Source: Candidatus Bipolaricaulota bacterium | GTDB taxonomy: Bacteria > Patescibacteriota > Patescibacteriia > UBA11705 > DATKZF01 | NCBI GenBank assembly: GCA_035528115.1 | Contig: DATKZF010000003.1 | Coordinates: forward strand, 551,089-615,088 | Direction: 5' to 3' | Length of the DNA: 64,000 bases | Shown here: positions 11,003 through 58,104 of the stretch, piece after piece | Layout: each line of letters starts with the position of its first letter | Numbering within the stretch: position 1 is the first letter of the stretch | Position numbers and translations under genes: made by a program | Notes under the pieces: generated by a model | Databases searched by the model: none | Told to the model about the DNA's origin: nothing | Seen by the model: only the letters and a program-made list of their open reading frames with translations

Positions 11003-11077
11003 ATGATTTTTAAATGATTCGCCTCGTCCCTGCTTGTGCTGGAGGTGGAACACCATGAGCGAGCGGAGTGAGTCGAA

Positions 11078-13979: not shown

Positions 13980-14324
13980 TTCAAAGACGATGTTGAAAAA
14001 TCCGACCGAGCGTCGGATTTTTTTGTTGTCGAATGAAAAAGCGGAGAGTCAAGCTCTCCGCTGGGGATGGATTTGAATTTTTGTTTTGTAGAATTTCTTT
14101 AGCGGAAAAAGCGGAGAGGCAATTTTTCCGCTGGGATTGGATTTGGGTTTTTGCCCAATGAAAAATTTTATTAGCAGGCGCAAAGGCTTTTTATTGGTGT
14201 GTATTTTTTCCCTTACCAGCGGAGAGCTTGACTCTCCGCTCATGGATTTATTTAAAATAAATAGCCGAGGTTCCTTGTTAGAAACCTCGGCCAAACGAAC
14301 GTGTGCGCGACTCGCGGTCATCGC

Positions 14325-15074: not shown

Positions 15075-16063
15075 CAGCTCTTCCCTCCAAGCCCCTTGAG
15101 GGCGTTCTGAAGAATGCCGGCGATATCGAGCGACAGCACCAACTTGGAACTGCCGCTGGAACCGATGGCCTTGGCCGCTTCGATGGCGGCCATGGCCTTC
15201 ATGTATTCGGCTTTCTGGCCTCCGCTCTCGAGCAGACCTAGCGCCTCGAGGGCCTCGGCCTCTGTCATCATGGCCACGGCCTTGCCCTCGGCCACCTTTA
15301 TGGCGACCTGCTTGGCCGCTTCGGCGTCGATGATCGCTCGCTCGCGCTCTTTCTCGGCGATTTTCACGCCAAGCGCAGCCTTTTCCAGCTCCGCTTTCTG
15401 CTGGAGCTGAATTCGAGGCACCTCATCGAGCGCCTGACGAATAGTTTCGTCGGCTGCCCGAATGACGTTGACTGTGACGCCCTCGAACAGGACGCCCCAT
15501 TCGCTTTCCTTTGTTTTGAGTTCATCCAGGATGGCCTTGGCAAGCTCTTTGCCCGCGCCAATCATCTTGTCGTAGCTTGTTGCGGCTGCCTGGCGTCTAA
15601 ATTCCCCCTGTACCTCGTCTTTGATCAGCTCGTCCTCGAGCCGACCGTGAACTGATAGAAAGAGTTTGACGCACTCGATCTCGGACAACCCGTGTTTGGT
15701 TGCCCATTTTTGTGGATCCAAACGCCAGTTGACCGAGATGATCTCAGCCAGAACGTCCATCCAGCCGACTTGTTTGTCAGATTCATCGTTCACCTTCGCG
15801 CGCGCCTCGAGCGAAGAGTAGTCCCTTGATTGCGTTTCGCGGGTGAAGTACGGCTTGTCGTCCGAGAACCTCTCGAGCGACTGGAGCAGCAGTTTGTTGA
15901 TCACGCGGATGCCCGCGTGCTTGACGGCCTCGATGCCGCCGCGGCCCATGACGATCATGATGTCGTTGGGCCGGAGAAAGTGGATGCGAAAGATCGCTCC
16001 CAGGATGAGAACGATCGTGCCCAGACCCATGACGAGCCCCAATAGCCAGTAATACTCTTCCAT
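15074..16063 (-). CDS. SPFH/band-7 family protein (flotillin/HflK-like)
   Basis: N-terminal TM, an SPFH-like core, and an Ala/Glu-rich coiled-coil tail (AELEKAALGVKIAEKERERAIIDAEAAKQ). The region is GC-rich. Confidence 0.5.
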   Translation of the reverse strand: MEEYYWLLGLVMGLGTIVLILGAIFRIHFLRPNDIMIVMGRGGIEAVKHAGIRVINKLLLQSLERFSDDKPYFTRETQSRDYSSLEARAKVNDESDKQVGWMDVLAEIISVNWRLDPQKWATKHGLSEIECVKLFLSVHGRLEDELIKDEVQGEFRRQAAATSYDKMIGAGKELAKAILDELKTKESEWGVLFEGVTVNVIRAADETIRQALDEVPRIQLQQKAELEKAALGVKIAEKERERAIIDAEAAKQVAIKVAEGKAVAMMTEAEALEALGLLESGGQKAEYMKAMAAIEAAKAIGSSGSSKLVLSLDIAGILQNALKGLGGKS

Positions 16064-16199
16064 CTTAATCTAATCCTCCCGTAAACGAAAACGTAAAAAT
16101 CTTTGCGGGAAAATCCCGCTTTTAGTTGTCAAAGTTCACAAAGTCACCATATTATTATATCATATTTAGTCAAAAAAGTCAATATTTGCGTATAAAACA

Positions 16200-20008: not shown

Positions 20009-20085
20009 TTGATGTTTTGGGACAGTTCCCAATGACGCGAACACTCCTTGTGCGTTTTCCTGCAAGGAGTGTTTTGTTTTAAACG
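20009..20085 (+). ncRNA. Candidate small RNA, possibly encoding a leader peptide (9-codon ORF MLMFWDSSQ), ending in an intrinsic terminator
   Basis: The consensus promoter immediately upstream is followed by the stem aacactccttg/caaggagtgtt and a ttgtttt T-run. Confidence 0.35.
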
Positions 20086-20300
20086 TTACAAATTCCAGCA
20101 GCTGATAAGCTAGCCTTGGTTTTAGTTTTTGTGAGTCGTTACGAATGATTACAAATACGTTTACGTTACGAATTATTGCGGCTATTTAGCTATCCTTAGC
20201 GTCATATTTATTACAAATACGTTACAAATTCCAGCAGCTGATAAGCTTGCCTTGGTTTTTGGCTTTGTGAATCGTTACGAATAATTACAAATAATGGGCG
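20060..20300 (+). repeat. AT-rich tandem repeat array (ccagcagctgataagc... and gttacgaat units)
   Basis: Two ~140-bp direct repeats: acaaattccagcagctgataagcttgccttggtttt...tgtgagtcgttacgaatgattacaaat. Confidence 0.6.
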
Positions 20301-28256: not shown

Positions 28257-28456
28257 GCAAGGTCAGTATCAAATGGGGAGATAACATCTATATATCGATA
28301 ATGCCTGGAATTTTGCTTATCGGCCCCGAGCCATGTTAGCAGCCCCTCCTCTGCTGTCTGTGCTTTAAGCTGATAAGCAAGATTCCGGGCTTTATTTGTT
28401 TAAAGCCCCGAGAGAAAGTTTAACAATCCCCCGACAAGGGGGGAAAGGTCCTGATC

Positions 28457-29038
28457 ATGAAGACGACGTTGATCGTTGTGGCGGCCCTCGTGGTCGCCCT
28501 GGCCGGTTCGGACTCTTTTGCCCGCGGCAGCCGGCCACGCGGTCAGACCCCTCGTGGCCAGACCGTTCGTGGCGGCCAGACCGCCGAGCGCGCGAGCTAC
28601 CGCAACACCCCGCGCGGTCAGTCCCCTCGGGGACAGGTGGCTCGCGGCCGCGCTCCTCGTGGAGAGGTCCGCGGCGGATCCTACCGTCGTGGCGGCGCCT
28701 ACCGCCCGGCGGTGTATGGTCGCGGCGGGGTCGGCTTCCACGTCGAGTTCGGGTTCGGCATTCTGCAGCCCCGGACTGTGTACGTGGCGCCGCAGCCCGT
28801 GGTCGTGGTCTCCGCGTGCTCGTACGATGAGCCGTGGAACTGCGCCCCGGCCGGACCCTTTTCGTTTAGCGGCTCCCACTACTACTACAGCGTCGGCAAC
28901 GGCCTGTGGTACATCGTGGGGCCCAACCCGTTCTTGATCAACAAGAACCCGGGTGGCTACCCCGTCTCGGACAGGTATCTGGTCGAGGCGCGGCGTAGCT
29001 ACCTCATGCATCCGGCTGCTTACGCCGTGGTGCGGTAG
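28457..29038 (+). CDS. Secreted Arg/Gly-rich repeat protein (hypothetical); GC-rich gene
   Basis: Signal peptide MKTTLIVVAALVVALAGSDSFA, PRGQ/RG repeats, and a strong ribosome-binding site (aaggggggaaagg). The composition is strikingly GC-rich compared with the flanking sequence. Confidence 0.5.
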   Translation: MKTTLIVVAALVVALAGSDSFARGSRPRGQTPRGQTVRGGQTAERASYRNTPRGQSPRGQVARGRAPRGEVRGGSYRRGGAYRPAVYGRGGVGFHVEFGFGILQPRTVYVAPQPVVVVSACSYDEPWNCAPAGPFSFSGSHYYYSVGNGLWYIVGPNPFLINKNPGGYPVSDRYLVEARRSYLMHPAAYAVVR

Positions 29039-29067
29039 TTCCATCAACGTTTAAAGGAAAGGAGGAA

Positions 29068-29112
29068 AACAAAAGGACGCTAGGTCTTACCCTATGCGTC
29101 CTTTTTCGTTTT
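29068..29112 (+). terminator. Intrinsic terminator after the RG-rich protein gene
   Basis: aggacgc..gcgtcct hairpin followed by tttttcgtttt. A perfect 13-bp palindrome tagagacgcgccgc/ggcgcgtctcta follows. Confidence 0.5.
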
Positions 29113-29201
29113 AAATGCGCGGTCATCGGCGGCGACGCCGATGGTAGAGACGCGCCGCGGCGCGTCTCTACGCGCGGGCGTATGCCCGCGGCCGCGCCAT
29201 A

Positions 29202-31166
29202 TCACATGAAATTTTTCAAATCAACAATGGCCGCCACGACGGTTTCCATGAATTTTTTCTTTTCCGCCATGGTGAATTTTTTCAACACAAAATCAGCCGT
29301 GTCTCCCATTTTCTTTTTATCTTCGCGGGCAATGCCGAGGCGCAAGCGATGAAAATCATTTGAGCCAAGAAAATCAATGATCGATTGAACTCCTTTTTGA
29401 CCGGCTGATGATCTGCTTTTTTGAATTTTGTATTCGCCCAGTAAAAAATCGACGTCGTCGTGAATCACCAGCAAGTTGTCCAAATCAATGTTGTAGTATT
29501 TGACCAATTTTTGAACGGCTTCGCCGGAATTGTTCATGAAAGTCTGCGGCTTGGCCAAAATGATTTTATTGCCGTCGAGCCTGCCCGCGGATAGCCAGCT
29601 TTGATTTTTTTTATCCAAAATCCATCCTCCAAAATCATATTGAGCTTCTTTCTTTAATTCGTCCAAAGCCGTAAAGCCCGCGTTGTGCCTCGTCGATTCA
29701 TATTCTTTGCCAGGATTGCCCAGGCCGACAATCAATTTGGTCATATTTTTACCGCTTAATTTTTTGTTTTTCGACAAAATCGCTTCTTTGGGCAACTGTC
29801 TGCTTCTTTTCGTTAAAACCAGTTTGACGCCGCTGCCGGACAAATTGAATTCTTCCCTCAGATTGTTGAGCAAATATCGGCGATAAGAAAAAATCAAATC
29901 TTGAGGTTTATCGATAATCAAAGCGAAAGTCGGCGGATTGATATCGGTTTGATTGATTTCATAAATGAAAGCCGGTTTGGTGATGTGATTTTTCGGAGGA
30001 GGGGATTGTTTTTTAATCATCTTGGACAAAAATTTATCCAGCTGTCTTTGCGGGATGATGATTTTGCGATCTTCGTAAAGTTGAATGATCATGTCGAGCA
30101 GCCGCTTCACCTTGAAGCCTGTTTTCGCGCTGGTGAAAACAATCGGCGCCCACTTTAATTGCGGCAAAAGCGACTGATAATATTCAATATATTTTTTTTG
30201 GGTGTCTTCATCCTTCTCGGGGATCAAATCCCATTTGTTCGCGACAATGATTAGGCTGGGATGCTCGTCCATGATGACCTGCGCCAAGTTTTTATCTTGA
30301 ACGGATAATTTTTTGCTGCAATCGGTGATGAAAATGGCCACGTCGATTTCACGAATGGTGTCCAAGCTTTGTTCAATGCCCAGTTTTTCCAACTTGCCTT
30401 TGATTTTACCTTTCTTGGTCACGCCCGCGGTATCGAAAAAGCGCAAGTTGTAATTTTTCCCGGAATCGGCCGAAAAATCAATGTCGATCATCTGCCGATC
30501 TCTGGTGGTGTGCGGACGTTCATTGACAATAACTCTTTCTTCGCCGGAAATTTGATTAAAGAGAGACGATTTGCCCACGTTCGGCTTGCCGATCAAGCCG
30601 ATGGAAATTTTTTCGATTTTTTCTTTCGTCTCTTTCACTGCGGGTTTTTTAAAATTCATCTTTGACAGCATCGCATCCAAAAGATCTCCGGTGCCGCGAC
30701 CGCTGGCCGCGGATATCGCGATCGGTTCTCCCAAACCCAGTTTGTAAAATTCGGATAAATTGACCTCGTCTCTGGCCGCGTCGGTTTTATTGGCGACCAG
30801 AACGATGTTTTTTTTATTTTTTTTCTTAAGCATGCCGGCGTATTTTTTGTCTCCGGGCAAAAGTCCTTCTTTGGCATTGACCATGAACAAAATCAAATCG
30901 GCTCGCTTGATGGCTTTTTCCGCTTGGATCAGCGATTGCTTTTCAATCAAGTCCGGATCCTCGACATCCAGACCGGCGATGTCCACCATGGTCATGACTT
31001 TGCCGCGCCAAACACAGTCGCCGTATTGGCGATCTCTGGTCGTGCCGGCGATATTGGAAACAATGGCGTTTTCGGTTTCGGTCAATTTGTTAAATAAAGA
31101 GGACTTTCCAACATTGACTCGGCCGACCAAAACGACGAGCGGATTTTGATGTTTTATCTTTGACAT
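29202..31166 (-). CDS. der-pth: In-frame fusion of GTPase Der/EngA (two G-domains plus KH) and peptidyl-tRNA hydrolase
   Basis: G1 motifs GRVNVGKSS and GKPNVGKSS, then the Pth N-terminal signature MTKLIVGLGNPG..Y..TRHNAGF. It is a single 666-codon ORF with no intervening stop. Confidence 0.75.
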   Translation of the reverse strand: MSKIKHQNPLVVLVGRVNVGKSSLFNKLTETENAIVSNIAGTTRDRQYGDCVWRGKVMTMVDIAGLDVEDPDLIEKQSLIQAEKAIKRADLILFMVNAKEGLLPGDKKYAGMLKKKNKKNIVLVANKTDAARDEVNLSEFYKLGLGEPIAISAASGRGTGDLLDAMLSKMNFKKPAVKETKEKIEKISIGLIGKPNVGKSSLFNQISGEERVIVNERPHTTRDRQMIDIDFSADSGKNYNLRFFDTAGVTKKGKIKGKLEKLGIEQSLDTIREIDVAIFITDCSKKLSVQDKNLAQVIMDEHPSLIIVANKWDLIPEKDEDTQKKYIEYYQSLLPQLKWAPIVFTSAKTGFKVKRLLDMIIQLYEDRKIIIPQRQLDKFLSKMIKKQSPPPKNHITKPAFIYEINQTDINPPTFALIIDKPQDLIFSYRRYLLNNLREEFNLSGSGVKLVLTKRSRQLPKEAILSKNKKLSGKNMTKLIVGLGNPGKEYESTRHNAGFTALDELKKEAQYDFGGWILDKKNQSWLSAGRLDGNKIILAKPQTFMNNSGEAVQKLVKYYNIDLDNLLVIHDDVDFLLGEYKIQKSRSSAGQKGVQSIIDFLGSNDFHRLRLGIAREDKKKMGDTADFVLKKFTMAEKKKFMETVVAAIVDLKNFM

Positions 31167-31167
31167 A

Positions 31168-31620
31168 TTACAAATTACGAATAATTGCATCGAATAGGAC
31201 AAGCTTGGTTTAGGTTTATCTGTTTGCTACGAATTGTTGCTTCTATGTAGCTTGCCTTTGCCTTGAAATTACGAATAATTGCATCGAATAGGACAATCTT
31301 GGCTTTGGTTTAGGTGACTTATTACAAATAATTACGAATGAGGCGGGAAAGTTGATGGCTACTTAAAAAGCTAATAAGCTACAACCTATTACAAATAGTT
31401 GCGTCTGGCAGGACAAGCTGTGTTTAGACCTTAACGTTTATTGCGAATAATTACAAATGGTTACGAATTACAATAGACTATTCAGCTTTCAGGTTATTTG
31501 TTACGAATTACAATATTCTCAGGCATAAAGTTATAAGTTAATGTACTTTGTAACAATACAAATAAAGAGCCATTTAGTGAATGTAATTCGTAACGACTCC
31601 CCGGCTTCTCTGTTTCATGC
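31168..31620 (+). repeat. AT-rich tandem repeat array (attacgaataattgcatcgaataggacaagcttgg... and gttacgaattacaat units)
   Basis: Multiple 45- to 110-bp direct repeats that share blocks with arrays at 35900, 54400, 57440 and 60560. Confidence 0.65.
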
Positions 31621-31634
31621 TTCATGATACGTGA

Positions 31635-33035
31635 TCAAAGATCCTTATTATCCGCGCCCAAAATAATGTAAAAATCAGTACCAGGCGCGGCCAGTTTTTT
31701 TATCCAATCAGGTATTTCCTCCGATTTTTTAGCTTTAAGAATTGTTTCCAGCACGCCGGTCACTCCGGATTTTTCTCCTCCGGTCAGATCGTATAGCTCG
31801 GTTGTCTCATAGTCTTGCGACGGCGCGTTGCCGATTTTAATGACTTCATAACCGAGAGAAGTGAATTTGTCCGAGGTTCTGCTCGCCAGCCCGTTGACGC
31901 CCGTGCCGTTTTTAATTTCTATTTTGGCCGTTTCTTTTTGCTCAATGGCTTGTTCTTTCAAAAAAATGTTTTCCGCCGCGAATCTGATATCCGAAAAATT
32001 TTCGCTTTTTGGTTTAAGCACGAAAGCTTCTCCGTATTTGGTGCCGTACAAAAGTCCGTTGGGACTGTCATCGAGCACCAAAGTGCTGACGTTTTCCATG
32101 TCCACTTCTTGGGCGATTTTGGCCAAGTGAACGATTTCCCAAATTTCCAAATTGGTCGAGATGTTTTCGCTCAATGTTTCCATGACCTTGGATATTTTTT
32201 TCGGGCTCAGAAAGGTTTTGTACGATAAGGTTTTTTTCTGCACGGCCTCGAGTACTTTTTGTTGCCGTTTGCTTCTGGCGAAATCGCCGGACTCTCCGTT
32301 GTTGCCGTGGCGGGAGCGGACGTATTTGAGAGCTGTGTCGCCATCCATGGTCTGCCAGCCTTCTTCGAAACGAACCACTTGATATTTATCGTTTGGCGCG
32401 GGATATTGATAATCCGTAAAAGAACGATCCACGTAAACGTCAATGCCGTCCAGATCGTTTACCAGACTTTCGAAGCCGTCAAAGTCCACTCTGACGAAAT
32501 AGGGAATATCAATGTCCAAGACATCGCTGACGACTTTGGTGGTATAGATGCCGCCGGTGCCGTTCGTCTGGGCTTCGGCGAAAGCATAGGCGTTATTGAT
32601 TTTGCCTTGGCCGAAATCGGGCAAAGGCACCAGCAAGTCTCTGGGGACCGACATCATGGCCACGCGATTTTCGGACGGTTTGATGCTGATCAGCATGATG
32701 GTGTCTGTCAGGTTCGGGCCGTCGTGCCCGCTGCCGCCGTTGCCTAGCAACAGAATGTTGATGCGGTCGTCTTGCTCCCCGATCACTTGATCTTCATAGC
32801 CTTTGATCATTTGGCCGACGTTTTTGAAAAAATTAAAATTTTGGAAACTGGCGTTTTTTCCTCCCGATAGAATCACTTGAAAGGTGAAAACGGCGAAGAC
32901 CGTAAATAAAACAATGAATAAATATAAAATCAACCGGCTGACCTTGAATATTTTTTTGCCTTTCGGATTTTTGTTGTCGTCTTTATTGAGCAAGTTAACT
33001 TTGATTGTTTTGTCGATATTTTCTTTTTGCGCCAT
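31635..33035 (-). CDS. LytR-CpsA-Psr (LCP) family cell-envelope phosphotransferase
   Basis: N-terminal TM, the LCP core (ILLLGNGGSGHDGPNLTDTIMLISI, SVPRD), and a C-terminal LytR_C-like region. Confidence 0.7.
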   Translation of the reverse strand: MAQKENIDKTIKVNLLNKDDNKNPKGKKIFKVSRLILYLFIVLFTVFAVFTFQVILSGGKNASFQNFNFFKNVGQMIKGYEDQVIGEQDDRINILLLGNGGSGHDGPNLTDTIMLISIKPSENRVAMMSVPRDLLVPLPDFGQGKINNAYAFAEAQTNGTGGIYTTKVVSDVLDIDIPYFVRVDFDGFESLVNDLDGIDVYVDRSFTDYQYPAPNDKYQVVRFEEGWQTMDGDTALKYVRSRHGNNGESGDFARSKRQQKVLEAVQKKTLSYKTFLSPKKISKVMETLSENISTNLEIWEIVHLAKIAQEVDMENVSTLVLDDSPNGLLYGTKYGEAFVLKPKSENFSDIRFAAENIFLKEQAIEQKETAKIEIKNGTGVNGLASRTSDKFTSLGYEVIKIGNAPSQDYETTELYDLTGGEKSGVTGVLETILKAKKSEEIPDWIKKLAAPGTDFYIILGADNKDL

Positions 33036-35899: not shown

Positions 35900-36230
35900 T
35901 TTTTATCTTCATTATGGAAATATTACGAATTACAATATTCTATTTAGCTTTCAGGTTATTTGTTACGAATTACAAGATTCTGTTTAGCTTCTATGTTATC
36001 TGTTACGAATTACAATATTCTATTTAGCTTCTATGTTATTTGTTACGTATTACAATCGACTATTAAGCTTTCAGGTTATCTGTTACTAATTACAATCATC
36101 TATAGCTATATGCCTTAGAATCTTGTACTTCGTAACGATCGTTTCTAAGCCAAATGGAACCTTGTACTTCGTAACAATATAAATAAAGAGCTATTTAGTG
36201 AATGTAATTTGTAACGACGCGCGGCGTTTG
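35900..36230 (+). repeat. AT-rich tandem repeat array (gttacgaattacaat units of ~45 bp)
   Basis: About six tandem units. It ends with the conserved block aataaagagctatttagtgaatgtaatttgtaacgac, which is also present at 31560-31600. Confidence 0.7.
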
Positions 36231-36343: not shown

Positions 36344-38194
36344 ATGAAAAAGAAAGAGCCAAGAGCAAAAATTTTATTAGGCGCTTTATTTTTGAGTATT
36401 GTTTTATTAACAATTGTTTTTTTGTTTCCATCGGGAACTTTTGCCCAGCAAGCGCAACTCGAAGCCGTAGGGCAGCAGGTCGGGTTTTTTGAGCAATCCT
36501 TACCCGTGGTTATCGGTAAAATTATCAGAATAGTCCTTTCAGTGGTCGGCGTTGTCTTGCTCGTTATTGTGATTTACGCCGGATTTTTATGGATGACGGC
36601 CGGAGGCAGTCCCGAACAAATAGAAAAGGCTAAAAAATGGCTGACCAACGGCGTGATCGGCTTGGTCATAATTTTATTTTCTTATTCAATAGTGACCTAC
36701 ATTATCAATCAACTGCTCGATGAAGGCGGCGTTTTCGGTTCGCCATCCACCTATTATGAAGGCTATGGACAAGGCGGCGGCGGCTGGGGAGGCGGCGCGC
36801 TGAGTGAAACAATCGAAGACCATTACCCCGGACGCGACGCGACCAATGTGCCGAGAAATACTTTTATAATGGTTAAGTTTTACGAACCGCTTAATCCTGA
36901 CAGCGTCAGGAGACAAGATACGTCGATGGATTGCGGCGATCAAGGTTACATTTGCGGTACGCTTAATTTCGACAACATAAAAATTTACAGAACCGAAGAC
37001 AGTGAGGAAGGTTCTTTTCCGACCGACTCCGCGACTTTGGTGCGCGGCGGCAAAGCGGCTTTGTCTCCCGATAAAAGAATATTTTTTTTCCAGCCCGATC
37101 CGGTGCTGGGTTCGGATACGGTGGACGTGAACTATTCGGTTTTTTTGACCAATGACATTCAAAAAGAGGATGGCTCCAAGATTTTCAGCAATAATAAAGA
37201 TTACGGTTGGAATTTCACCACGAGCACGGTCATTGATCTGACTCCTCCGCGAGTGGTCAGCGTATTGCCCAGTTCCAATAATCCGGAGTTTGAATTTTTC
37301 GCCAACAGTCTCATTCAAATCAATTTCAACGAACCCGTTTTGCCGCCCGCGGTTTTGAATACGGCCGGATCGGTGGAGGATAAAAGCAATTCCATTTATA
37401 TCGAATATGAAAAAGACGGCGCCGTAGGTTATGTCGAAGGCACATTCAATGTCGGTCTGAACCGATTTAAAACCATGGAATTTTTACCGGCGGCCGATTG
37501 CGAAAACTCCGGGCCCAATTCTTGCGGAGAAATCCCAAAATGCTTGCCCAAAGGCGCGACGATCAAGCCTTATATTCGAGCGGCCAGCGTCAACGCCGAA
37601 GGATTATCGTTCTTCCCGTTTGATGGTTTGGTGGACGCTGCCGGCAATTCGCTCGATGGCAATGCCGATGGGGTCGCGCAAGGACCGGCTGAAGATGATT
37701 ATTCTTGGCAATTTAAAACAGGCAGTATTTTGGATTTGCTGCCGCCGACGGTCAATTCGGTCTCGCCGCAAAACGCGGCCGAAGACCTGCCCGTTGACGT
37801 GGAACTTAAAGCGACGTTTTCCGAAAATCTCAGCGCTTCTTCGGTCAACAGCAGAACAGCTCTTTTGACGGGCGACGATTGGGCGCGCTGGTTCGTGGTT
37901 CATTTCGCGGACACGCCCGCGGGCGAGGACGGTCAGACGATCACCGACAGTTCGACGGTTCAAATCTCTCACGCCGATTTTGACAAAGCGCTGGAAGTGG
38001 AGGAGGGGCAAGAAGCCATTTCATTGAAATATTATCCGGTCTTAACGTCCGGAATAAAGGATTTACAGCAAAATTGTTATCAGCCGTGCAAAGATACTGG
38101 TTCTTGCGCCGGCGCCTTGCCCGGGCAGTCTTGTTGCCCTGATCCGGATTTCAATAATCAAAGACTTGTGCCCGGCTCGACTTGCCCGCAGTAA
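36344..38194 (+). CDS. Pilin-domain surface protein: N-terminal VirB2/TrbC-like (T4SS-pilin-type) domain plus Ig-like (SbsA/Big-type) domains and a Cys-rich C-terminus
   Basis: The N-terminus IIRIVLSVVGVVLLVIVIYAGFLWMTAGGSPEQIEKAKKWLTNGVIGLVIILFSYSIVTYIINQL is homologous to the 16383..16793 pilin. DLTPPRVVSVLPS and DLLPPTVNSVSPQ are Ig-like domain starts. Confidence 0.6.
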   Translation: MKKKEPRAKILLGALFLSIVLLTIVFLFPSGTFAQQAQLEAVGQQVGFFEQSLPVVIGKIIRIVLSVVGVVLLVIVIYAGFLWMTAGGSPEQIEKAKKWLTNGVIGLVIILFSYSIVTYIINQLLDEGGVFGSPSTYYEGYGQGGGGWGGGALSETIEDHYPGRDATNVPRNTFIMVKFYEPLNPDSVRRQDTSMDCGDQGYICGTLNFDNIKIYRTEDSEEGSFPTDSATLVRGGKAALSPDKRIFFFQPDPVLGSDTVDVNYSVFLTNDIQKEDGSKIFSNNKDYGWNFTTSTVIDLTPPRVVSVLPSSNNPEFEFFANSLIQINFNEPVLPPAVLNTAGSVEDKSNSIYIEYEKDGAVGYVEGTFNVGLNRFKTMEFLPAADCENSGPNSCGEIPKCLPKGATIKPYIRAASVNAEGLSFFPFDGLVDAAGNSLDGNADGVAQGPAEDDYSWQFKTGSILDLLPPTVNSVSPQNAAEDLPVDVELKATFSENLSASSVNSRTALLTGDDWARWFVVHFADTPAGEDGQTITDSSTVQISHADFDKALEVEEGQEAISLKYYPVLTSGIKDLQQNCYQPCKDTGSCAGALPGQSCCPDPDFNNQRLVPGSTCPQ

Positions 38195-38240
38195 TTATAA
38201 TTTCAAAAAAGTTTATCGATAGTGTAATTCGTCAAGGAAA

Positions 38241-41200
38241 ATGAAAACGTTTTTCAAAAACAAAAAAGTTCTTGTCATGCTGATCGCCTTTGTCGGGTTT
38301 TTGATTTGTTTTAATTTCGCGGCCGCGCAGTTTGACACGGGCTTGCAAACCGTGGGCGAGCAGGCCGGCATCGGAGCGACCACGGACGTCAGAGTGGCGA
38401 TCGCCAGAATCATCAGAACCGCTTTCGGTTTTCTGGGAGTGGTCGCGGTCGCCTTGGTCATTTATGGAGGATTTTTATGGATGACCGCCGGCGGAGACGC
38501 CGATAAAGTTACCAAAGCCAAAAAAGTGCTGGTCAACGCGTTTATAGGTTTGGCCATTATTCTTTTGGCTTTTTCGATCACCTCTTTTATCATCAACAGT
38601 TTGCAAGAAGCTGTTTTGGGTCAGCCGGGAGAATACGAATATGACGGCGGAGATGGAGGCGGCCCGAGCTCGTCGAGTTGCGGTTTTACGCCAAAGAGCG
38701 TTCAGCCGATCGGCGCGGTTTCTCTCAGAAATATTGTCGTGCGCGCGACCTTCAATGAAACCTTGGACGCAAATCTGGACGAACAAACATTGAAAAACAA
38801 TTTTGTCATTACCGATAAAGCGACCGGACAGACAGTCGACGGCGCGATCAGCGTCAATGGAAAAATTCTAGAATTCGAACCGAGCGCCGCGTGTCCCGAA
38901 CCCAATCAAGAAAGACACTGCTTTGACGCGGATACGATTTACAACGTGCAAATTCTGGCGGGCATAAAAAATAATCAGGGACAAGCTCGATCTTGCTGTC
39001 TGGGCAGCGTTTGTACCGCGGAATTTTCTTCCGGCAATTTAATCGATGTCGAGAATCCGACAATCAACATAATTTCGCCATACAACGGCCAGCAAATCAG
39101 CGAAAATATCATTTTCCCGCTTCAAGCTTTGACTCATGACGACAGTGGCGTGTCCATCGTGGAGTTTTTCGTTGACAAAAATTCGGCGGGAGCGGTTTCC
39201 CCGAGCGAAATTTCACCTAATTACAACGCCCAAGTCGATTGGGATAATTCGGGCTTTGAGCTTGGCTTGCACAGAATAGACGCCCGCGTTTTTGATCTGG
39301 ATTCCAATAAAACCGACGCGGCGTCCAAGCAAGTCAAAATTTTAGCAGAGCATTGTTTTAATTTGAGTCAAGATTTCGACGAAACGGGCATTGATTGCGG
39401 GGGCGCGGATTGCGGAGTTTGCGACGGTGAAGAATGCGACGGCGATCTGGATTGCGCCAGCGGCGTTTGCGTTGACAGTGTGTGCGTCAATTATCCGACC
39501 ATCACCGCTTTATCCAATGTTGAAGGAGCGATCGGCAACATGATTACGATCTGGGGTTATAATTTCGGCGAATATCAAAGCGGGGCCAGCAAAGTTGAAT
39601 TCACCGGTCCCAAACAAAGTTTGATCTCAGCCGAATTTTCCTGCGGCGCCGAGGGTTCCACTTGGTCCGAGCACAGCGTGGTGGTCAAGGTTCCGGAAGG
39701 TTCCGTTGACGGTCCGATAAAATTAACCAATGTTGACGGATACTGGGACAATACTGCAAACGATCGAGGCTTTTTGGGAGATTTTGTCATTAATCCCGAT
39801 CTTTTCTGGCCGGGCTTGTGCAGCGTCGTCAATCCGGACGGCAGGGCACTCGGCGAGTATGAAGATTCGGTGCTGGCTACCGGAGAAAACATGGGGCAGT
39901 CCGGCGAAGTCTTGTTCGGGAATATCAAAGCTCAGGTCACGGGCGCTTGGTCGTCTAATTCGATTTCAGGCATCAAGGTGCCCAATGTTTCCCCGAGCAA
40001 CATTTTGGTTAACGTGAAAACGGACGGTCAGCTCAGCAACCCCGTAAATTTTCAAGTGGTCTCTTCCAGCAAATTGCCGGAAATAATTTCGGTTAATCCC
40101 GAGACGGGCGGCATCGGCCAGTACACGACGATTTCGGGTAGAAATTTCGGAGATAATCCCAATTTATATCAAGTTTATTTCATCAATAAATCAAATGACA
40201 GCATCAGAGTGCCGGCCGACTTGAATTTTCCGCCCGAATGCGCGGAGAGCCTCTGGAGCGACACCGAAGTCTTGGTTAAAGTGCCGCAGACAAATTTGTT
40301 GGGCGAATATTCCGTGCAAATGATTGGTCAAGAAGCTCAAAGCAACAAAGTGAATTTTCTGATCTCGGACGCGTCGGCCAGTCCGGGAATTTGCGGGCTT
40401 GATCCGGACAACGGTCCGGTGGGCACATCGGTGAATGTTTACGGCGAAGGTTTTCGAAGCGAAGGAGTTTTAACTTTCAATGAAAATAAAAAGGCTCAAC
40501 AATTAAATTTGACCGCCAATTTGATCGCCACGGGAGTGCCCCCGGCCTCTGTTTCCGGTCCGGTTAATTTCGCGCTTGAAAACTTGATCAGCAACGGCAT
40601 GGTTTTTAATGTAGGCAGCTGCACGTCCGTGTCTTGCGACGCGGGCGATGAATGCTGCGTTGACGGAGTTTGCCGTTTGTCGGGCGCTTGCGAAACGAGT
40701 CTGATCGCGGCCAAGTGCGAGTATTCTTGGATGCTGAGCACGGACAAATTGCCGCTGGTGCCCAGAGTGCTGGAAACCATGTCTTGCGACGACGAGCACA
40801 ATCAGTCGCCGTCTCCGTGGAAAGATTCATCAGACGCTTGTGTCAACGCCTTGATCTCGGCTCAATTCAACATGCCCGTCAAAATGGACGCCATTGCCGA
40901 TAAATTAATTATCAAACGTTGCTCTTTGCAAAATGAAGTTTGCGATTTCAATAAGTGCGGACAGGAAGGCTCGAATTGCGTTTTTGAAATCCCGAGTTCG
41001 ATCGAAACGGCCGGTTCTTTGAGCGATCGATTCGCGGCCATTGTCGAGTCTTTGCCCGGAGGGGGAGATGAGAGCAATTTGATTTCCAATACTTGGCATC
41101 AAGTGACCATCAAAGGCGGGGTTAGCGGCATCAGAGGGGAAAACGACACACCCATGCCGGTCAATTACGTTTGGCAATTCAAGACCAAAGATGGTCCGTG

Positions 41201-44200
41201 CGAGCCGGTCAATGTGATCGTCGAACCGACCGCCGGCATAATTTCAGAATATTTGGGTCAATTGAATTATACGGTTTACGGCCAGGCCGAGAATTGCAAC
41301 ATCCTTAAGACGGGCTTTGATTGGAGCTGGGTGATTGATCGAAATCAAGATAAGGCTTCGATAGAAGACATCTCAAATGACAAATCCCAGGTTACCGGTT
41401 TGGCGGAGACCGAACCGGCCGATCCGGTCGTGGTCAGAGCGTCCACCGTGTCCGTTGATGGGGTGACTCAGCAAGACAGCGCTCCTTTGAAAATTGATTT
41501 TACTGATCCGAAAGTCAAGTCATTCGGTCCGAATTGCCAAGCGGCTTGCGTCAATACCGCTGTCTTCTCGACTTTCAATACTTACATGAACGCGGACTCC
41601 GTAAAAAAGAATTTTCAGATTTTCAAATGTCAGGGACAGCAATGCCTGGGCTTGACCGCAATTTCTCCGAATAATTTTACTTTTGAATATAATGATCTCG
41701 ACAAGACTCTCTGGGTTTTCGGACAAGCCGGCAAAACCCCATATTATTTTTCACCCAACAGCTATTATCGGGTGGTGATCGGCAGCCGATCAGAGAGTTT
41801 AAGCGGCGTCGAGCTTACCGGTTTGAATTTTGACCGCAATGACGACGGCAAAAATGACGCTTTTTCATGGACATTCAAAACAAAAAATGATAATACGCGT
41901 TGCGACTTGGAAACCGCTGTCGTGAATCCTGATTTTTATGAAAGCACCACACAGGGGGAGAAAGTCCAATACCTCGTTTCGGCCAAAGGCACGCCGGATG
42001 AGTGCAACCCCAGCGGCCAGACTTTGAATCCGTTCGAGTTCGATTGGGTTTGGTCGGTATTAAATCCTGGTTCTTGGGTTGTGGCCAGTATCACTCACGC
42101 CTTGCATTCCACCGATTTTCCGAGCGAGATCTGCTCGAGTAATTGTTTGAATCTGGGCAGTGATCCTTTTGCCGCGGTTTGCGGCAACGGCGCGCAGGAA
42201 TACGGCGAGGAATGCGATAATCAAGGAGTGTGCTCGGGAGATGAAGGCACCGATTGTTCTTCCAATGCGGATTGTTCCATTGTTGGAGGAGTCTGCGAGC
42301 CAAAAGACGGGGACGGTTGCAGCATTGATTGTTTGAACGAATCCGTGCCGGCTGTCAGCGACGGGGGATCTTGCGGTAATGGCGTCAGGGAAGGGACGAG
42401 AATAATCGATGGTATAACTTATCATGAAGAATGCGATCCGGCCGTTGATCCGGATATCTGCACCGCCGGTTGCCAATTGGCGGGTTCGGATGTTAGCGGT
42501 TTTGTCTGCGGCAACGGCCAAAAAGAAGCGGGTGAAGATTGCGATGACGGCAATGCTTCAAACGGCGATGGTTGCTCGAATATCTGCTTGTTTGAAGGAT
42601 CGAAATATTCCGTGGCCCAGATTATTGAAACTCCGCTTTGCGGCAATGCCGATGTTGAGCCGGGTGAAGACTGCGATGACGGTAATTTATTGTCCGGCGA
42701 CGGCTGCTCGCCCCGATGTTTGGCCGAAGGCAATGCCGAACAGTGCGGCAACGGCATTATCAATATCGGAGAAAACTGCGATGATGGAAATAATGATTCC
42801 GGCGACGGATGTTCGGCTGTTTGTTTGGCCGAAGGTTCCGACTGGGACATCGGATCTTATTGCGGAAACGGTTTTCCATTGGAAGTCGGCGAAACTTGCG
42901 AAGCCAAGCAAAGCTCGGATTTTCAAGGCTCGCCCAAGCAATTGGTGACCGTCGATGGCAATATCGATCCTTTTATAATGAGCGAGTCCGCGGAAATTAA
43001 AGCGATGACCGATAATTTCGCGGGCACGAGGGTATCCGGCAGCGGCGAGCTGGCTTTTACCAGAACGTTTTGCGAAAGCGTGCCCGTCGAATCTCCGTAT
43101 CCGATTGTCGGACCGACCGGCAGCGATGTCTGTCGCAATTCGGCCATTCAGATTAAATTGAATCAGCAAATCAAACAATCCAGTTTGAGCTCCGGCATCA
43201 GCGTCACCTATGATTGCGGTCAGACTTCATTGCTTTCCAAAATTAAAAAATTAGTCATTAAAAAAATAAAATATCGTTTGGAAATTTTAGCCGTGGCGAA
43301 AATAAAAGTGAAAAATTATTTTGTAAAACCGGCTAATGCTCAGCGAAAAGGCGAAGAAGAAACCTTTACACAGACGACTTTCGAAAGCGTGGTCCTGGAT
43401 TACCACCGGCCGGACAATTCAAATGTTTGGTTGTTGGTTCGGTTCGGATCCAGCTTGGTTTTGGCTACGGTTAATAAAGATAGCGTCAGTCCGGAGGTTT
43501 GGACCGTGGCTGAAAAGTACGCCGAAACCGGCTCGATTGTGCTGATCTCAGGGTTATTGTCCAATACCCCCGATAGTAAAGGCTATTTGCCCATGGCTGT
43601 CGATAATTTGCAAATTATTGAGGCCGAAGAGCCGCCGGCGCTGGGAAGCTCGGGCGTCTGTAAATTGTCGATTAAAAAAATCAGCGTCGTGTATAACGAA
43701 GAATTGAGAGAAAGCTCTATTACCATATTCCCTGATGGTTTGCTCGCGCCAAACACCAAATACACGGTGGACTTTTCCGGTTTGCAAGATCATTGCGGAG
43801 AATCGATCTCCGGCGATATTTTCGAATTCACCACCGGACCGGAGGCTAAGATATGTAAAATGGATTACGTGGAAATCACCCCGGATTATCAAGTGGTGAG
43901 CAAACGTTTTGGCGACGCGGAATACGCGCCCGTGGATTTTCAAGCCAATGCCGGAAGTTATGAGTTGGCTAATTCTTCGCTCAATCCGGTGCCAGGCGTT
44001 TACGCTTGGGATTGGACGTGGAATATGAATTCCGAGCCCGGAGGTTTGGATGTGTCGTTGTTTGATAAAGCCGGAGACGCGACCGGGGCGAATCCCGAGG
44101 ACGATGATCAAAAGAGCCTGCAGACCGGAGTGTCAAACGGCGAAGTCGAAGTGGATGCCATCGCCACCGTGACCGATAGCGAATTCGGCGATTTGGATAA

Positions 44201-45320
44201 AGAATTCGGAGGCGCGGCCAATGTCATCATTTATCTTTGCGAAAATATTTGGACCGGCACTTTGACGGACGGAGGTTTTTGGCGGGACAGCGATTTCGCT
44301 TTCAGGACTTTTTATTGTCGCGACGCGGGCAATCCCGGAGAAACGGATGATTTGCCCAATTTGAAAATAGTTCAGGCGCCGCCGCTCGATATTCCGACTG
44401 ACGCTTGGAGCCAAGACGATAGCGCCGTGCTTCGAGAGTATTTCATGCTCAGAGAAGATAATTTGACGCCGGACGCCATTGCCATGAGAATTTACACCAA
44501 TCCGGAAGGCGTATCTCCGGCCATTTGGTATGATTTGCATGTGCCCAATCCGGGCAGCACTCAGAATATCAGCATTGATTGCTCGACCGAATACAACAAT
44601 AATGCGAAAGCTTGCTATCCCGGCATTCAAGACGGTCGAACCGTCTATTTGTCAGCGGCCAATCAAATTACGGTTTATGTCAATTACGGTTGTTATTTTA
44701 TTCACGGAAAGCAGTATTGCCGTACTTTGGCTGTGGGAGACTCCATTTATCACAATATTTACGTGTTGTCATATAGCGAAAACGCCAATCCGGAAACTTT
44801 ATCCATTTACAGTCAGCTTTTGAATAATTTGAAATTCAATTATTTTGACAGCAGCATGGTCAAGGCCAGCCTGAAGAGAGACACGCAGAGAATGCATGAT
44901 ATTGTTTTCATTCGCAGTTTGATTAAAAATTATATTCAAAAAAACGGTCGTTTGCCTTTGCTCGATGAAACCGGAAGCTATGTGCCGGGCACTTATGTCA
45001 ATGGTCAATCAATCAGCGCTTGGCCGTCTTGGACCACCGTTTTAAGCAACCTCTTGGGTTCTCCCTTGCCGATAGATCCGCAGAACGGATTTAACGGCAC
45101 CTGTCCGGCCAATTACGATCAAGACACTTGTTTCAACGAACAGCTGGACGAAAAGTTTTATAACGAATACGATAAGAGTGTGGCGCAGGTTTACGATTAC
45201 AGTCTGGATCCGGATTCGCCGAGCGGCTATAATCTCTCGGTTAATTTTGAAACGGTAGTGCCCGAAGCCAAGAGATATCCGGCCATTTGTGTTAATTTGC
45301 AGGAGATTGATTGTCATTGA
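38241..45320 (+). CDS. Giant (2359 aa) surface protein: N-terminal VirB2/TrbC-like pilin domain, three IPT/TIG domains, about five Myxococcus-type cysteine-rich repeats, and a large uncharacterised C-terminal region
   Basis: The N-terminus IARIIRTAFGFLGVVAVALVIYGGFLWMTAGGDADKVTKAKKVLVNAFIGLAIILLAFSITSFIINSL is homologous to the other pilin-domain proteins. IPT domains include PTITALSNVEGAIGNMITIWGYNFG. The cysteine-rich repeats are of the form CGNG..E.GE.CDDGN...GDGCS..C. Confidence 0.7.
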   Translation: MKTFFKNKKVLVMLIAFVGFLICFNFAAAQFDTGLQTVGEQAGIGATTDVRVAIARIIRTAFGFLGVVAVALVIYGGFLWMTAGGDADKVTKAKKVLVNAFIGLAIILLAFSITSFIINSLQEAVLGQPGEYEYDGGDGGGPSSSSCGFTPKSVQPIGAVSLRNIVVRATFNETLDANLDEQTLKNNFVITDKATGQTVDGAISVNGKILEFEPSAACPEPNQERHCFDADTIYNVQILAGIKNNQGQARSCCLGSVCTAEFSSGNLIDVENPTINIISPYNGQQISENIIFPLQALTHDDSGVSIVEFFVDKNSAGAVSPSEISPNYNAQVDWDNSGFELGLHRIDARVFDLDSNKTDAASKQVKILAEHCFNLSQDFDETGIDCGGADCGVCDGEECDGDLDCASGVCVDSVCVNYPTITALSNVEGAIGNMITIWGYNFGEYQSGASKVEFTGPKQSLISAEFSCGAEGSTWSEHSVVVKVPEGSVDGPIKLTNVDGYWDNTANDRGFLGDFVINPDLFWPGLCSVVNPDGRALGEYEDSVLATGENMGQSGEVLFGNIKAQVTGAWSSNSISGIKVPNVSPSNILVNVKTDGQLSNPVNFQVVSSSKLPEIISVNPETGGIGQYTTISGRNFGDNPNLYQVYFINKSNDSIRVPADLNFPPECAESLWSDTEVLVKVPQTNLLGEYSVQMIGQEAQSNKVNFLISDASASPGICGLDPDNGPVGTSVNVYGEGFRSEGVLTFNENKKAQQLNLTANLIATGVPPASVSGPVNFALENLISNGMVFNVGSCTSVSCDAGDECCVDGVCRLSGACETSLIAAKCEYSWMLSTDKLPLVPRVLETMSCDDEHNQSPSPWKDSSDACVNALISAQFNMPVKMDAIADKLIIKRCSLQNEVCDFNKCGQEGSNCVFEIPSSIETAGSLSDRFAAIVESLPGGGDESNLISNTWHQVTIKGGVSGIRGENDTPMPVNYVWQFKTKDGPCEPVNVIVEPTAGIISEYLGQLNYTVYGQAENCNILKTGFDWSWVIDRNQDKASIEDISNDKSQVTGLAETEPADPVVVRASTVSVDGVTQQDSAPLKIDFTDPKVKSFGPNCQAACVNTAVFSTFNTYMNADSVKKNFQIFKCQGQQCLGLTAISPNNFTFEYNDLDKTLWVFGQAGKTPYYFSPNSYYRVVIGSRSESLSGVELTGLNFDRNDDGKNDAFSWTFKTKNDNTRCDLETAVVNPDFYESTTQGEKVQYLVSAKGTPDECNPSGQTLNPFEFDWVWSVLNPGSWVVASITHALHSTDFPSEICSSNCLNLGSDPFAAVCGNGAQEYGEECDNQGVCSGDEGTDCSSNADCSIVGGVCEPKDGDGCSIDCLNESVPAVSDGGSCGNGVREGTRIIDGITYHEECDPAVDPDICTAGCQLAGSDVSGFVCGNGQKEAGEDCDDGNASNGDGCSNICLFEGSKYSVAQIIETPLCGNADVEPGEDCDDGNLLSGDGCSPRCLAEGNAEQCGNGIINIGENCDDGNNDSGDGCSAVCLAEGSDWDIGSYCGNGFPLEVGETCEAKQSSDFQGSPKQLVTVDGNIDPFIMSESAEIKAMTDNFAGTRVSGSGELAFTRTFCESVPVESPYPIVGPTGSDVCRNSAIQIKLNQQIKQSSLSSGISVTYDCGQTSLLSKIKKLVIKKIKYRLEILAVAKIKVKNYFVKPANAQRKGEEETFTQTTFESVVLDYHRPDNSNVWLLVRFGSSLVLATVNKDSVSPEVWTVAEKYAETGSIVLISGLLSNTPDSKGYLPMAVDNLQIIEAEEPPALGSSGVCKLSIKKISVVYNEELRESSITIFPDGLLAPNTKYTVDFSGLQDHCGESISGDIFEFTTGPEAKICKMDYVEITPDYQVVSKRFGDAEYAPVDFQANAGSYELANSSLNPVPGVYAWDWTWNMNSEPGGLDVSLFDKAGDATGANPEDDDQKSLQTGVSNGEVEVDAIATVTDSEFGDLDKEFGGAANVIIYLCENIWTGTLTDGGFWRDSDFAFRTFYCRDAGNPGETDDLPNLKIVQAPPLDIPTDAWSQDDSAVLREYFMLREDNLTPDAIAMRIYTNPEGVSPAIWYDLHVPNPGSTQNISIDCSTEYNNNAKACYPGIQDGRTVYLSAANQITVYVNYGCYFIHGKQYCRTLAVGDSIYHNIYVLSYSENANPETLSIYSQLLNNLKFNYFDSSMVKASLKRDTQRMHDIVFIRSLIKNYIQKNGRLPLLDETGSYVPGTYVNGQSISAWPSWTTVLSNLLGSPLPIDPQNGFNGTCPANYDQDTCFNEQLDEKFYNEYDKSVAQVYDYSLDPDSPSGYNLSVNFETVVPEAKRYPAICVNLQEIDCH

Positions 45321-58063: not shown

Positions 58064-58104
58064 AACTTCTTTTTACTAATTACCATTTACTGATTTCTGT
58101 TTAC

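Follow-up and report, generated by a model that had tools for sequence, protein, structure and literature searches.

The KH domain of EngA (Der) binds the peptidyl-transferase centre of the 50S subunit, the C-terminal extension contributing to this binding, and the protein occupies the space of the P- and E-site tRNAs; in E. coli EngA, the extension beyond the KH domain is disordered and species-specific (PMC4245960). In bacterial RQC, peptidyl-tRNA hydrolase (Pth) has been reported to free nascent chains from peptidyl-tRNA bound to the 50S subunit (Svetlov et al., cited by PMC11317155). A described link between Pth and a 50S-binding TRAFAC GTPase is the bicistronic pth-ychF operon of E. coli, whose two genes are co-transcribed (PMC11814078); it differs from the locus reported here in that the GTPase is YchF and not Der, the gene order is opposite and two proteins are made. 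A precedent for Der fused with the product of a neighbouring gene is provided by Cmk-Der (bifunctional cytidylate kinase / GTPase Der, NF007071), but that fusion is N-terminal and the partner is Cmk. The Der scaffold also accepts other added domains, as in protein P0016 (three G domains and KH) and protein P0129 (a serine-hydrolase-like domain between GD1 and GD2), both of which lack the Pth domain found here. No description of a Der/EngA-Pth fusion was found in literature searches.

In an uncultured, tiny-genome population of Patescibacteria-like bacteria, the neighbouring essential translation genes der and pth are joined as one intact reading frame, located within the analysed stretch of 64,000 nucleotides (the window; Table 1). 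The first-pass annotation had described a 666-codon ORF carrying both Der G domains and the KH domain and continuing without a stop codon into a complete Pth, and this is what was observed: the 666-codon version runs from an upstream TTG at 31202 (29202..31202, minus strand), Pfam and NCBIfam agreed on its content, and the Pth start, MTKLIVGLGNPGKEY..TRHNAGF, had been correctly read. The ATG at 31166, giving 654 amino acids, is the likely start, because the first P-loop then falls at residues 15-22, matching its place in other Der proteins, and because public records use it. On the fused protein, Pfam identified MMR_HSR1 twice, KH_dom-like at residues 371-450 and Pept_tRNA_hydro at residues 478-648. 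The NCBIfam equivalog for Der (TIGR03594) scored 442 bits against a cut-off of 306.7 over residues 9-450 (model positions 1-430 of 432), and the equivalog for Pth (TIGR00447) 179.8 bits against a cut-off of 100 over residues 477-646. Both portions are thus full-length, Der with its two G domains and KH at residues 9-450 and Pth at residues 475-654, and translation of the ORF gave no in-frame stop in the linker of about 20 residues between them. Assignment to Cmk-Der (NF007071) was rejected, as the protein reached 304.8 bits where the cut-off is 953 and matched model positions 272-702 only, which correspond to the Der part.

Table 1. Features of the der-pth locus, in window coordinates
Feature	Position	Strand	Description
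Fused der-pth ORF	29202..31166	minus	654 codons and TGA stop at 29204-29202; identical to public protein P0001 / HUT22679.1
Der G domain 1	30657..31142	minus	residues ~9-170; Pfam MMR_HSR1 11-127, TIGR03594
Der G domain 2	30081..30611	minus	residues ~186-362; second MMR_HSR1, small_GTP 186-360
Der C-terminal KH-like domain	29817..30056	minus	residues 371-450; PF14714 62.6 bits vs 27.3 cut-off; pLDDT 92-98 (model from Der alignment)
Linker	29745..29801	minus	residues 456-474, (K)RSRQLPKEAILSKNKKLSGKN; relatives' Der end within it; aligns with relatives' spacers; low pLDDT in both models
A5-C-A6 homopolymer tract in linker	29760..29771	minus	other two frames hold stops just before the ATG
Pth domain	29205..29744	minus	residues 475-654; PF01195 187.6 bits vs 27, TIGR00447 179.8 bits; pLDDT 91-98
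GC-rich structured element	29118..29198	minus	directly 3' of the stop codon; outer stem around three hairpins
lytR-der intergenic region	31167..31634		468 nt, upstream of the fusion; a 47-nt repeat occurs three times and a 24-nt motif five times

The Der half matched Der/EngA (YphC, TIGR03594) from end to end, showing the equivalog score, the two tandem GTPase domains and the C-terminal KH-like domain that are required of this family, and was 63-69% identical to the ordinary Der of related Patescibacteria. The translation contained the expected motifs in G domain 1 (G1 GRVNVGKSS, G3 DIAG, G4 NKTD, G5 SAASG) as well as in G domain 2 (G1 GKPNVGKSS, G3 DTAG, G4 NKWD, G5 SAKTG), and the G1, G3 and G4 columns were invariant in the alignment of Der homologues. 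Judging from its core motifs, this half is predicted to act as a GTPase that docks on the 50S subunit. The difference from canonical Der lies at the C-terminus: the relatives' proteins stop a few basic residues past the KH domain (455-462 aa), whereas here the chain runs some 200 residues further.

Likewise, the Pth half was a full-length match to the PTH1 family (PF01195 / TIGR00447), shared 56-64% identity with stand-alone Pth proteins of relatives and matched solved Pth structures in the PDB with E values down to 1e-33. The catalytic and substrate residues N10, H20, N68 and D93 (E. coli numbering) agreed with all 56 homologues, and the tRNA 5'-phosphate clamp was formed by the majority residue at K105 (46 of 56) and at R133 (55 of 56). 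Apart from its location C-terminal to Der rather than in a stand-alone protein of about 180 aa, this half differs from PTH1 proteins in the GHNG motif (H113, N114), which reads GQKG. Position 113 is H in 55 of the 56 homologues, 26 of them carry K or R at 114, and the stand-alone Pth P0382, the only other homologue with H113Q, also has GQKG. The substitution may entail some drop in Pth efficiency. It could also be taken as a sign that one half is degenerating, the fusion being a step toward a pth or der pseudogene, but this is extremely improbable: the same GQKG occurs in a stand-alone enzyme and a K or R is common at position 114, both halves score well over the curated equivalog cut-offs, all residues for catalysis and nucleotide binding are preserved, and the frame contains neither internal stops nor frameshifts. 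Moreover, no second der or pth copy was found in the 64-kb window, which is part of a genome whose size is at least 0.6-0.76 Mb. A pseudogene was rejected on the motif integrity of both halves.

The alignments indicate that the linker is the basic Der tail followed by what was once the spacer between der and pth, which now reads open and in frame. Where the Der proteins of relatives terminate (...KKRQQTL*, ...EKRQKPKK*, ...HKKA*), the fused chain runs on as ...KRSRQ-LPKEAILSKNKKLSGKN-M; the assembled DNA across the junction is GAAAAACAAAAAATTAAGCGG and the corresponding peptide ...LSGKNMTKLIVGLGNPGK. The methionine reached in this way is residue 475 (nt 29744-29742), the ancestral pth ATG, which has been kept together with its A-rich leader, ggtaaaaatATG. 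The junction had been placed at about 29780-29800; more precisely, the Der core was found to end near residue 455 (nt ~29802), with the linker filling the interval up to the pth ATG. The linker sequence itself, ILSKNKKLSGKN, had been correctly read, and modelling had been suggested as a means of seeing whether it separates the domains. Two structure models were available, each built from a single-family alignment (Der or Pth) and each informative on its own half rather than on inter-domain orientation or interface. Der with KH was modelled confidently to about residue 455 and Pth from about residue 476, the residues between being of low confidence, which supports a flexible linker between the domains.

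The composition of the junction calls for caution, owing to its A5-C-A6 and A5 runs. Removal of one A from the A5-C-A6 tract creates a TAA that precedes the pth ATG by 11 nt, addition of one A creates a TAA about 5 nt ahead of it, and an indel of ±1 nt anywhere in the last 75 nt sets the genes apart again, with a Der of 450-489 aa. A one-base error in this A-rich stretch could thus mimic a fusion of two genes that are really separate, and the Der-Pth architecture is a database singleton, its protein cluster having a single member. Such an artefact is nevertheless very unlikely. The same 2065 nt, junction included, were found with zero differences in five assemblies (JGI 3300031565 and 3300031539; ENA ERZ27256827, ERZ27256828 and ERZ27256834), although this look-up was by exact protein identity and an assembly with a different junction would not be returned by it. 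These assemblies come from two pipelines overall, the three from ENA being MEGAHIT products, and their contigs span 50,953 to 604,320 bp; NCBI protein HUT22679.1 is the fused protein, which in the collection lies on a contig recorded at up to 762,837 bp. Homopolymers of six bases are not known as error hot-spots in short-read consensus. In addition, a collection of 15 billion proteins held no near-identical unfused Der or Pth, the nearest other Der being 69% and the nearest other Pth 64% identical. A stop codon or frameshift upon resequencing had been named as the observation that would overturn the fusion, and this point is effectively answered by five assemblies from at least two samples that share the junction. 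A single study site may underlie both JGI samples and the ENA assemblies, with some reads in common, in which case a systematic read-level error would be shared; the independence of the assemblies was judged from the small-flank look-up only, and the 100% identity over 22 kb between the window and a JGI contig is uninformative in this respect. Contigs of JGI metagenomes were scanned for the exact junction with A4-A9 variants, then for a pair of flanking anchors separated by a gap of variable length, with zero matches in both scans. As the pattern does match the window and L001, the scanned collection evidently lacks the source population, and the scan provides neither a replicate nor an alternative allele.

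Analysis of nine related loci showed der and pth as separate, co-oriented genes in all of them, within the same synteny block throughout (hisS-lepB-lytR-der-pth-...-dprA-folC). The two genes directly adjoin in L002, L003, L004, L005, L011, L012, L013 and L014, and a small opposite-strand ORF lies between them in L016 and L017. They overlap by 4 nt (ATGA) in L002, and are separated by spacers of 133 nt in L003, 135 nt in L011, 87 nt in L013 and 124 nt in L014. This arrangement indicates that der and pth are probably co-transcribed in the clade, and the ATGA overlap suggests that pth translation is coupled to that of der. A search for the same fusion in related genomes had been proposed; every relative has two genes instead. 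Among the best 120 matches of 5.8 billion protein clusters no other Der-Pth fusion was found, PF01195 occurring only in the self match, and none of the best 150 matches of 1.84 billion representatives covered query residues 477-646. In the latter set the fused protein was apparently subsumed under the unfused P0002 and isolated fusions could hide inside clusters in the same way, so that this search excludes a widespread fusion family and not isolated cases. The best 120 matches of a search with Pth only were all stand-alone Pth, a weak negative since the self protein P0001 was also missed. Exact 8-mer peptide patterns over the whole protein, which were too specific, retrieved from GTDB genomes four distant and irrelevant loci (Mycoplasma sp. 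MAG, Onthousia, Bartonella and an uncultured bacterium) and zero representatives of the source lineage.

Taken on this distribution, the fusion is a recent one, confined to a single lineage or clonal population, and not a conserved architecture. With respect to 'Rosetta-stone' reasoning, the halves are separate, adjacent and co-oriented in relatives, while recurrence of the fusion in more than one lineage was not observed; as a single clonal population with five 100% identical copies, it gives no sign of retention by selection over evolutionary time. A genuine recent 'Rosetta-stone' fusion of the clade-conserved der-pth pair, in one Patescibacteria-like population, is highly probable. It would have originated through loss of the der stop codon, the der-pth spacer of some 50 nt being by chance stop-free and in frame with pth. 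Among shuffled spacers 18% were stop-free, to be multiplied by one third for the frame, so that the chance occurrence of a short spacer of this kind would not be very improbable. The fusion would have been built on the adjacency of der and pth conserved in the clade rather than on a special mechanism. The event can most likely be regarded as a near-neutral accident, enabled by this adjacency and tolerated since the Der C-terminus can carry extensions.

As to the products, we infer one transcription unit and one translated chain with both halves active. Ribosomes starting at the der ATG would continue into pth and make a 654-residue chain composed of Der (GD1-GD2-KH), a basic flexible linker of about 20 residues and Pth. 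Since both halves keep all core motifs, this chain is most likely bifunctional, a GTPase docking on the 50S subunit via its KH domain and carrying a tethered peptidyl-tRNA hydrolase. Some free Pth may be made as a second product by internal initiation at its own ATG, because the genome is largely devoid of Shine-Dalgarno sequences and the pth ATG and A-rich leader were kept: 35 of 40 long ORFs in the window have no SD-like motif and stand behind A/T-rich leaders like that of pth. Extending this argument, the fusion might be functionally silent, with Pth present mostly as a free protein of about 20 kDa through internal initiation or linker cleavage and the fused chain a tolerated by-product. 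The resemblance of the retained leader to those of relatives (aaaatatATG) is consistent with this, as are the translational coupling suggested by the overlap in L002 and the lysine-rich linker, modelled with low confidence. However, ribosomes crossing the junction would still make the full fusion, the sequence holding nothing to stop them, and the linker has no evident protease site; a silent fusion is possible on this evidence, but rather doubtful.

The first-pass annotation had also read the fusion as a link between maturation of the 50S subunit and the recycling of peptidyl-tRNA. This functional interpretation is unsupported in that form. The fusion was found in one clonal population, with the relatives' genes separate, its spacer plausible by chance and the pth start kept. 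In its adaptive form, the KH domain at the peptidyl-transferase centre would place Pth near peptidyl-tRNA on free or immature 50S subunits and couple 50S quality control with tRNA recycling. Several observations point in this direction, namely the binding of the EngA KH domain and C-terminal extension to this centre, the reported action of Pth on 50S-bound peptidyl-tRNA (as relayed by the citing source), the co-transcription of pth with ychF in E. coli and the conservation of the der-pth neighbourhood across the Patescibacteria clade. On the other hand, EngA fills the P- and E-site tRNA space, so that its known binding mode bars Der from a 50S subunit with P-site peptidyl-tRNA; many relatives manage with separate genes, and the opening of the spacer by chance is not improbable. 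Adaptive tethering is therefore unlikely, and tethering of Pth to the 50S subunit via Der is a speculative possibility. One may go further and suppose that Der and Pth act jointly on the 50S subunit in the whole clade, the fusion being a minimal, one-chain factor for large-subunit quality control and recycling and the clade-wide linkage its genomic footprint. The KH domain and basic tail of Der would then bind at the peptidyl-transferase centre, and Pth on its tether would remove peptidyl-tRNA from 50S particles that are split or immature, in organisms whose repertoire for translation rescue is very reduced. We consider such joint action improbable.

If both halves do work in one chain, the fusion would be a natural 'Rosetta-stone' hint of a functional connection between Der and Pth, to be placed next to the pth-ychF linkage in E. 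coli and the reports of Pth acting on 50S-bound peptidyl-tRNA. Its biological weight appears small at present, as it is limited to one clonal population. It offers, on the other hand, a clean and datable case of adjacent, translationally coupled genes merging by stop-codon loss in a streamlined genome without Shine-Dalgarno sequences. It also has a practical side: in the public record the protein goes solely by 'ribosome biogenesis GTPase Der', so that a survey of genome completeness or essential genes would score pth as missing.

Regarding the flanks, a scan for promoter and terminator consensus sequences over 28900-31700 was uninformative, as it gave no more sites than shuffled sequences and zero internal promoter calls before pth. 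The GC-rich element downstream of the fusion is unique in the window and folds as RNA at -64.6 kcal/mol (z = -6.07), with a perfect palindrome of 28 nt at 29144-29171 inside it; it probably either closes the transcription unit or borders a GC-rich insert of foreign origin. On the upstream side, the two best copies of the 47-nt repeat in the lytR-der intergenic region match exactly over 28 nt.

The minus-strand ORF joining Der to Pth was free of interruption from either possible start codon, TTG at 31202 or ATG at 31166, down to the TGA at 29204-29202. The ATG was taken as the start (654 aa) because it is the one used in public records and because it gives the first P-loop the position (residues 15-22) that other Der proteins have. 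Pfam recognized two MMR_HSR1 GTPase stretches, an EngA KH-like domain (residues 371-450) and a complete Pept_tRNA_hydro domain (residues 478-648). Scores exceeded the curated cut-offs of both NCBIfam equivalog models: TIGR03594 (Der) reached 442 bits against a cut-off of 306.7 over residues 9-450 and, across residues 477-646, TIGR00447 (Pth) reached 179.8 bits (cut-off 100). The first-pass annotation, which described one ORF holding the Der domains and a complete Pth, was accurate in this respect and, as judged from sequence, both halves appear intact.

Read from the translation, motifs G1, G3 and G4 were GRVNVGKSS, DIAG and NKTD in the first Der G domain and GKPNVGKSS, DTAG and NKWD in the second; these columns were invariant in an alignment of 56 Der homologues. 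The Pth half matched solved Pth structures (best E = 1e-33). Aligned with 56 Patescibacteria Pth proteins (E. coli numbering), it kept N10, H20, N68 and D93, invariant in 56/56 homologues, and had the majority residue at K105 (46/56) and R133 (55/56). The sole deviation among the residues checked concerned the GHNG motif, which reads GQKG: at position 114, K or R is common in this group (26/56), while Q at position 113 is rare, occurring in a single homologue of the 56, the stand-alone Pth P0382. Decay of either half was also considered, but no sign of it was seen, the motifs being intact and GQKG being shared with P0382. No second copy of der or pth was found within the 64 kb window.

The main rival to a genuine fusion was an indel error in the A-rich junction (A5-C-A6, then A5 ahead of the pth ATG) making separate genes look fused, because a ±1-nt change anywhere in the last 75 nt would part them into a Der of 450-489 aa and an intact pth; both remaining frames are closed by stop codons shortly before the pth ATG. 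However, the exact fusion protein was encoded on contigs of five different assemblies: JGI 3300031565 (604,316 bp) and 3300031539 (604,320 bp), and ENA ERZ27256827 (398,201 bp), ERZ27256828 (50,953 bp) and ERZ27256834 (604,021 bp). This look-up was based on exact protein identity, finding this allele only and being blind to variant alleles, and the source samples were probably from one site or study. All 2065 of 2065 nt, junction included, were identical across the five, so that the stop or frameshift named by the first-pass annotation as fatal to its reading was not found. A near-identical Der or Pth without the fusion would have surfaced in the similarity searches, and none did: the Der ranked next was 69% identical to the fusion (best 120 of 5.8 billion clusters), and among the Pth matches listed the next was 64% identical to its Pth half. 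The 90% cluster of the fusion protein had a single member. In NCBI, this protein is HUT22679.1, and a protein collection gives its contig a length of up to 762,837 bp. A sequencing artefact is, in our estimate, very improbable.

A clean mixed alignment of Der and Pth was not achieved and the full chain was therefore modelled twice, with homologues of one family each, giving models to be read domain by domain and silent on inter-domain contacts. With Der homologues only, residues ~10-455 were mostly confident (KH domain at pLDDT 92-98), residues 451-470 dropped to 78 and then 61, and the Pth region, without alignment in that run, stayed below 50. With Pth homologues only, residues 476-654 reached 91-98 and residues 445-471 remained below 50. 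Both models place a weak helix near residues 460-471. These profiles indicate canonical Der and Pth domains parted by ~20 low-confidence, lysine-rich residues, in line with the linker guessed at by the first-pass annotation, and the models show this linker as flexible.

In every relative locus examined, der and pth were separate and co-oriented, within a block comprising hisS, lepB, lytR, der, pth, a variable small gene, dprA and a folC-like ligase (order scored only where contigs reach far enough downstream). The two genes overlapped by 4 nt (ATGA) in locus L002 and were otherwise parted by spacers of 133 nt (L003, L004, L005), 135 nt (L011, L012), 87 nt (L013) and 124 nt (L014), or by one small opposite-strand ORF in L016 (48% identity) and the Falkowbacteria locus L017. 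The neighbourhood is thus conserved in this clade, and the comparison with related genomes proposed at first pass yielded separate genes throughout. Among the best 120 of 5.8 billion clusters, the nearest Der relatives (63-69% identity, 455-462 aa) were without exception unfused. Der of relatives stops a few basic residues past the last KH strand (…KKRQQTL, …EKRQKPKK, …HKKA, …KRKKPNK), where the fusion runs on as …KRSRQ-LPKEAILSKNKKLSGKN-MTKLIVGLGNPG; the linker therefore combines the former tail of Der with a spacer that has become shorter and would now be translated. MAFFT aligned parts of the linker with the L003 spacer, pairing GAAAAACAAAAAAT with GGAAAAACAAATAAC and TAAGCGGTAAAAATATG with TAATCATTAAAATATATG, a match that is suggestive only, the composition being AT-rich. 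When the 63-nt stretch of tail plus spacer was shuffled, 18% of the products had no in-frame stop; multiplied by one in three for the right frame, this gives roughly 6%, and stop-free reading through such a tail is not rare.

With the 654-aa query, PF01195 occurred in the self match only (best 120 of 5.8 billion clusters), and the best 150 matches of a HMMER pass over 1.84 billion representatives all ended by query residue ~470; any fusion representative would have out-scored them. Widespread Der-Pth families are thus excluded, an exclusion that does not reach isolated cases hidden in clusters. No description of a Der-Pth fusion was found in literature searches. Two Der homologues from other metagenomes had different additions: three GTPase domains ahead of KH in P0016 (613 aa), and, in P0129 (635 aa), a serine-hydrolase / alpha-beta-hydrolase domain that separates GD1 from GD2. 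For the long relatives P0228 and P0259, Pfam showed two G domains and KH, with no additional domain. Der-Pth is a new domain combination from known parts. The fusion is real, recent and seen in one lineage, and it unites two essential, well-known genes whose proximity is conserved in the clade.

The two genes probably form one transcription unit, since they overlap in L002, a promoter scan called none inside der and a very stable GC-rich structure directly follows the stop codon. Ribosomes starting at der would meet nothing to halt them before the end of pth and would produce a 74 kDa chain. Shine-Dalgarno motifs are largely absent from this genome: in the window, A/T-rich leaders free of GGAG-like elements precede 35 of 40 long ORFs. 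The pth ATG retains an A-rich leader of the kind seen in relatives and neighbouring genes, making internal initiation of free Pth plausible; that most Pth activity stems from it is possible but doubtful. Der tolerates C-terminal additions; E. coli EngA bears a disordered, species-specific C-terminal extension contributing to 50S binding (PMC4245960). An adaptive role, with Der holding Pth near the peptidyl-transferase centre of the 50S, is an attractive idea because the EngA KH domain is located at this centre (PMC4245960), bacterial RQC is reported to involve nascent-chain release by Pth (Svetlov et al., as cited in PMC11317155) and, in E. coli, pth shares a transcript with ychF, which encodes another 50S-binding GTPase (PMC11814078). 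However, EngA fills the P- and E-tRNA space (PMC4245960), implying steric competition with the substrate that Pth would act on at this site, the fusion is limited to one clonal population, and chance alone explains the in-frame spacer reasonably well. Such tethering seems unlikely.

The product name of HUT22679.1 leaves out the Pth half; with Der alone in the public name, this genome would seem to lack pth. Its NCBI TPA record belongs to a MAG labelled 'Candidatus Bipolaricaulota'. This label is probably wrong, since taxon-named close Der and Pth homologues were all Patescibacteria/CPR (Falkowbacteria, Magasanikbacteria, 'Patescibacteria group') and contigs of ~0.6-0.76 Mb with giant T4SS-pilin/Big-domain proteins are consistent with a CPR genome.

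Features in and around the fusion gene (positions in the window)
Feature	Position	Strand	Remark
Pth methionine of the fusion	29744	minus	residue 475; translation of ORF
GC-rich element, ~81 nt	29118-29198	minus	just 3' of fusion stop codon
Perfect palindrome, 28 nt	29144-29171		inside the ~81-nt element
GC-rich stretch (~56%)	28400-29100		between pth and dprA
ORF with PRGQ/RG repeats	28457-29038	plus	signal-peptide-like N-terminus
Overlapping ORF	28400-29044	minus	preferred by public gene calls
Second GC-rich island	14001-16100		GC ~0.59
Island ORFs	14325-15074, 15074-16063	minus	one with weak SPFH/Band 7 match
lytR-der intergenic region	31167-31634		468 nt, unusually long
47-nt repeat, three copies	31172-31218, 31266-31312, 31386-31432		lytR-der intergenic region
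Dispersed short repeats	~11485-11543, 20083-20293, 35923-36103, 57517-58066, 62016-62301		BLAST
Two very large ORFs	36344-45320	plus	616 aa and 2359 aa
tRNA cluster	10706-11164	minus	tRNA-Met (CAT) x2, tRNA-Leu (CAA) x1

The ~81-nt element, occurring once in the window, folds into a cloverleaf-like four-way junction, with a 6-bp outer stem around three hairpins, whose stems measure 7, 12 and 8 bp and whose loops are all 4 nt long (MFE -64.6 kcal/mol, z = -6.07); it gave no ARAGORN call and no Rfam match at gathering threshold. The pth-dprA interval, GC-rich in a genome of ~43% GC, differs among relatives, and neither of its overlapping ORFs had a Pfam match. The second island looks like horizontally acquired DNA; both its ORFs are preceded by a strong GGAGG Shine-Dalgarno, unlike most window ORFs. 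Five copies of a 24-nt TTACAAAT.ATTACGAAT-like motif lie directly upstream of der, and the repeats of the lytR-der intergenic region are possibly regulatory. The dispersed repeats (75-160 nt, 82-99% identical between a JGI contig segment and the window) may belong to one family of short elements repeated between genes. Precomputed annotation available for the JGI contig gives T4SS_pilin/TrbC and Big-domain matches for the two very large ORFs.
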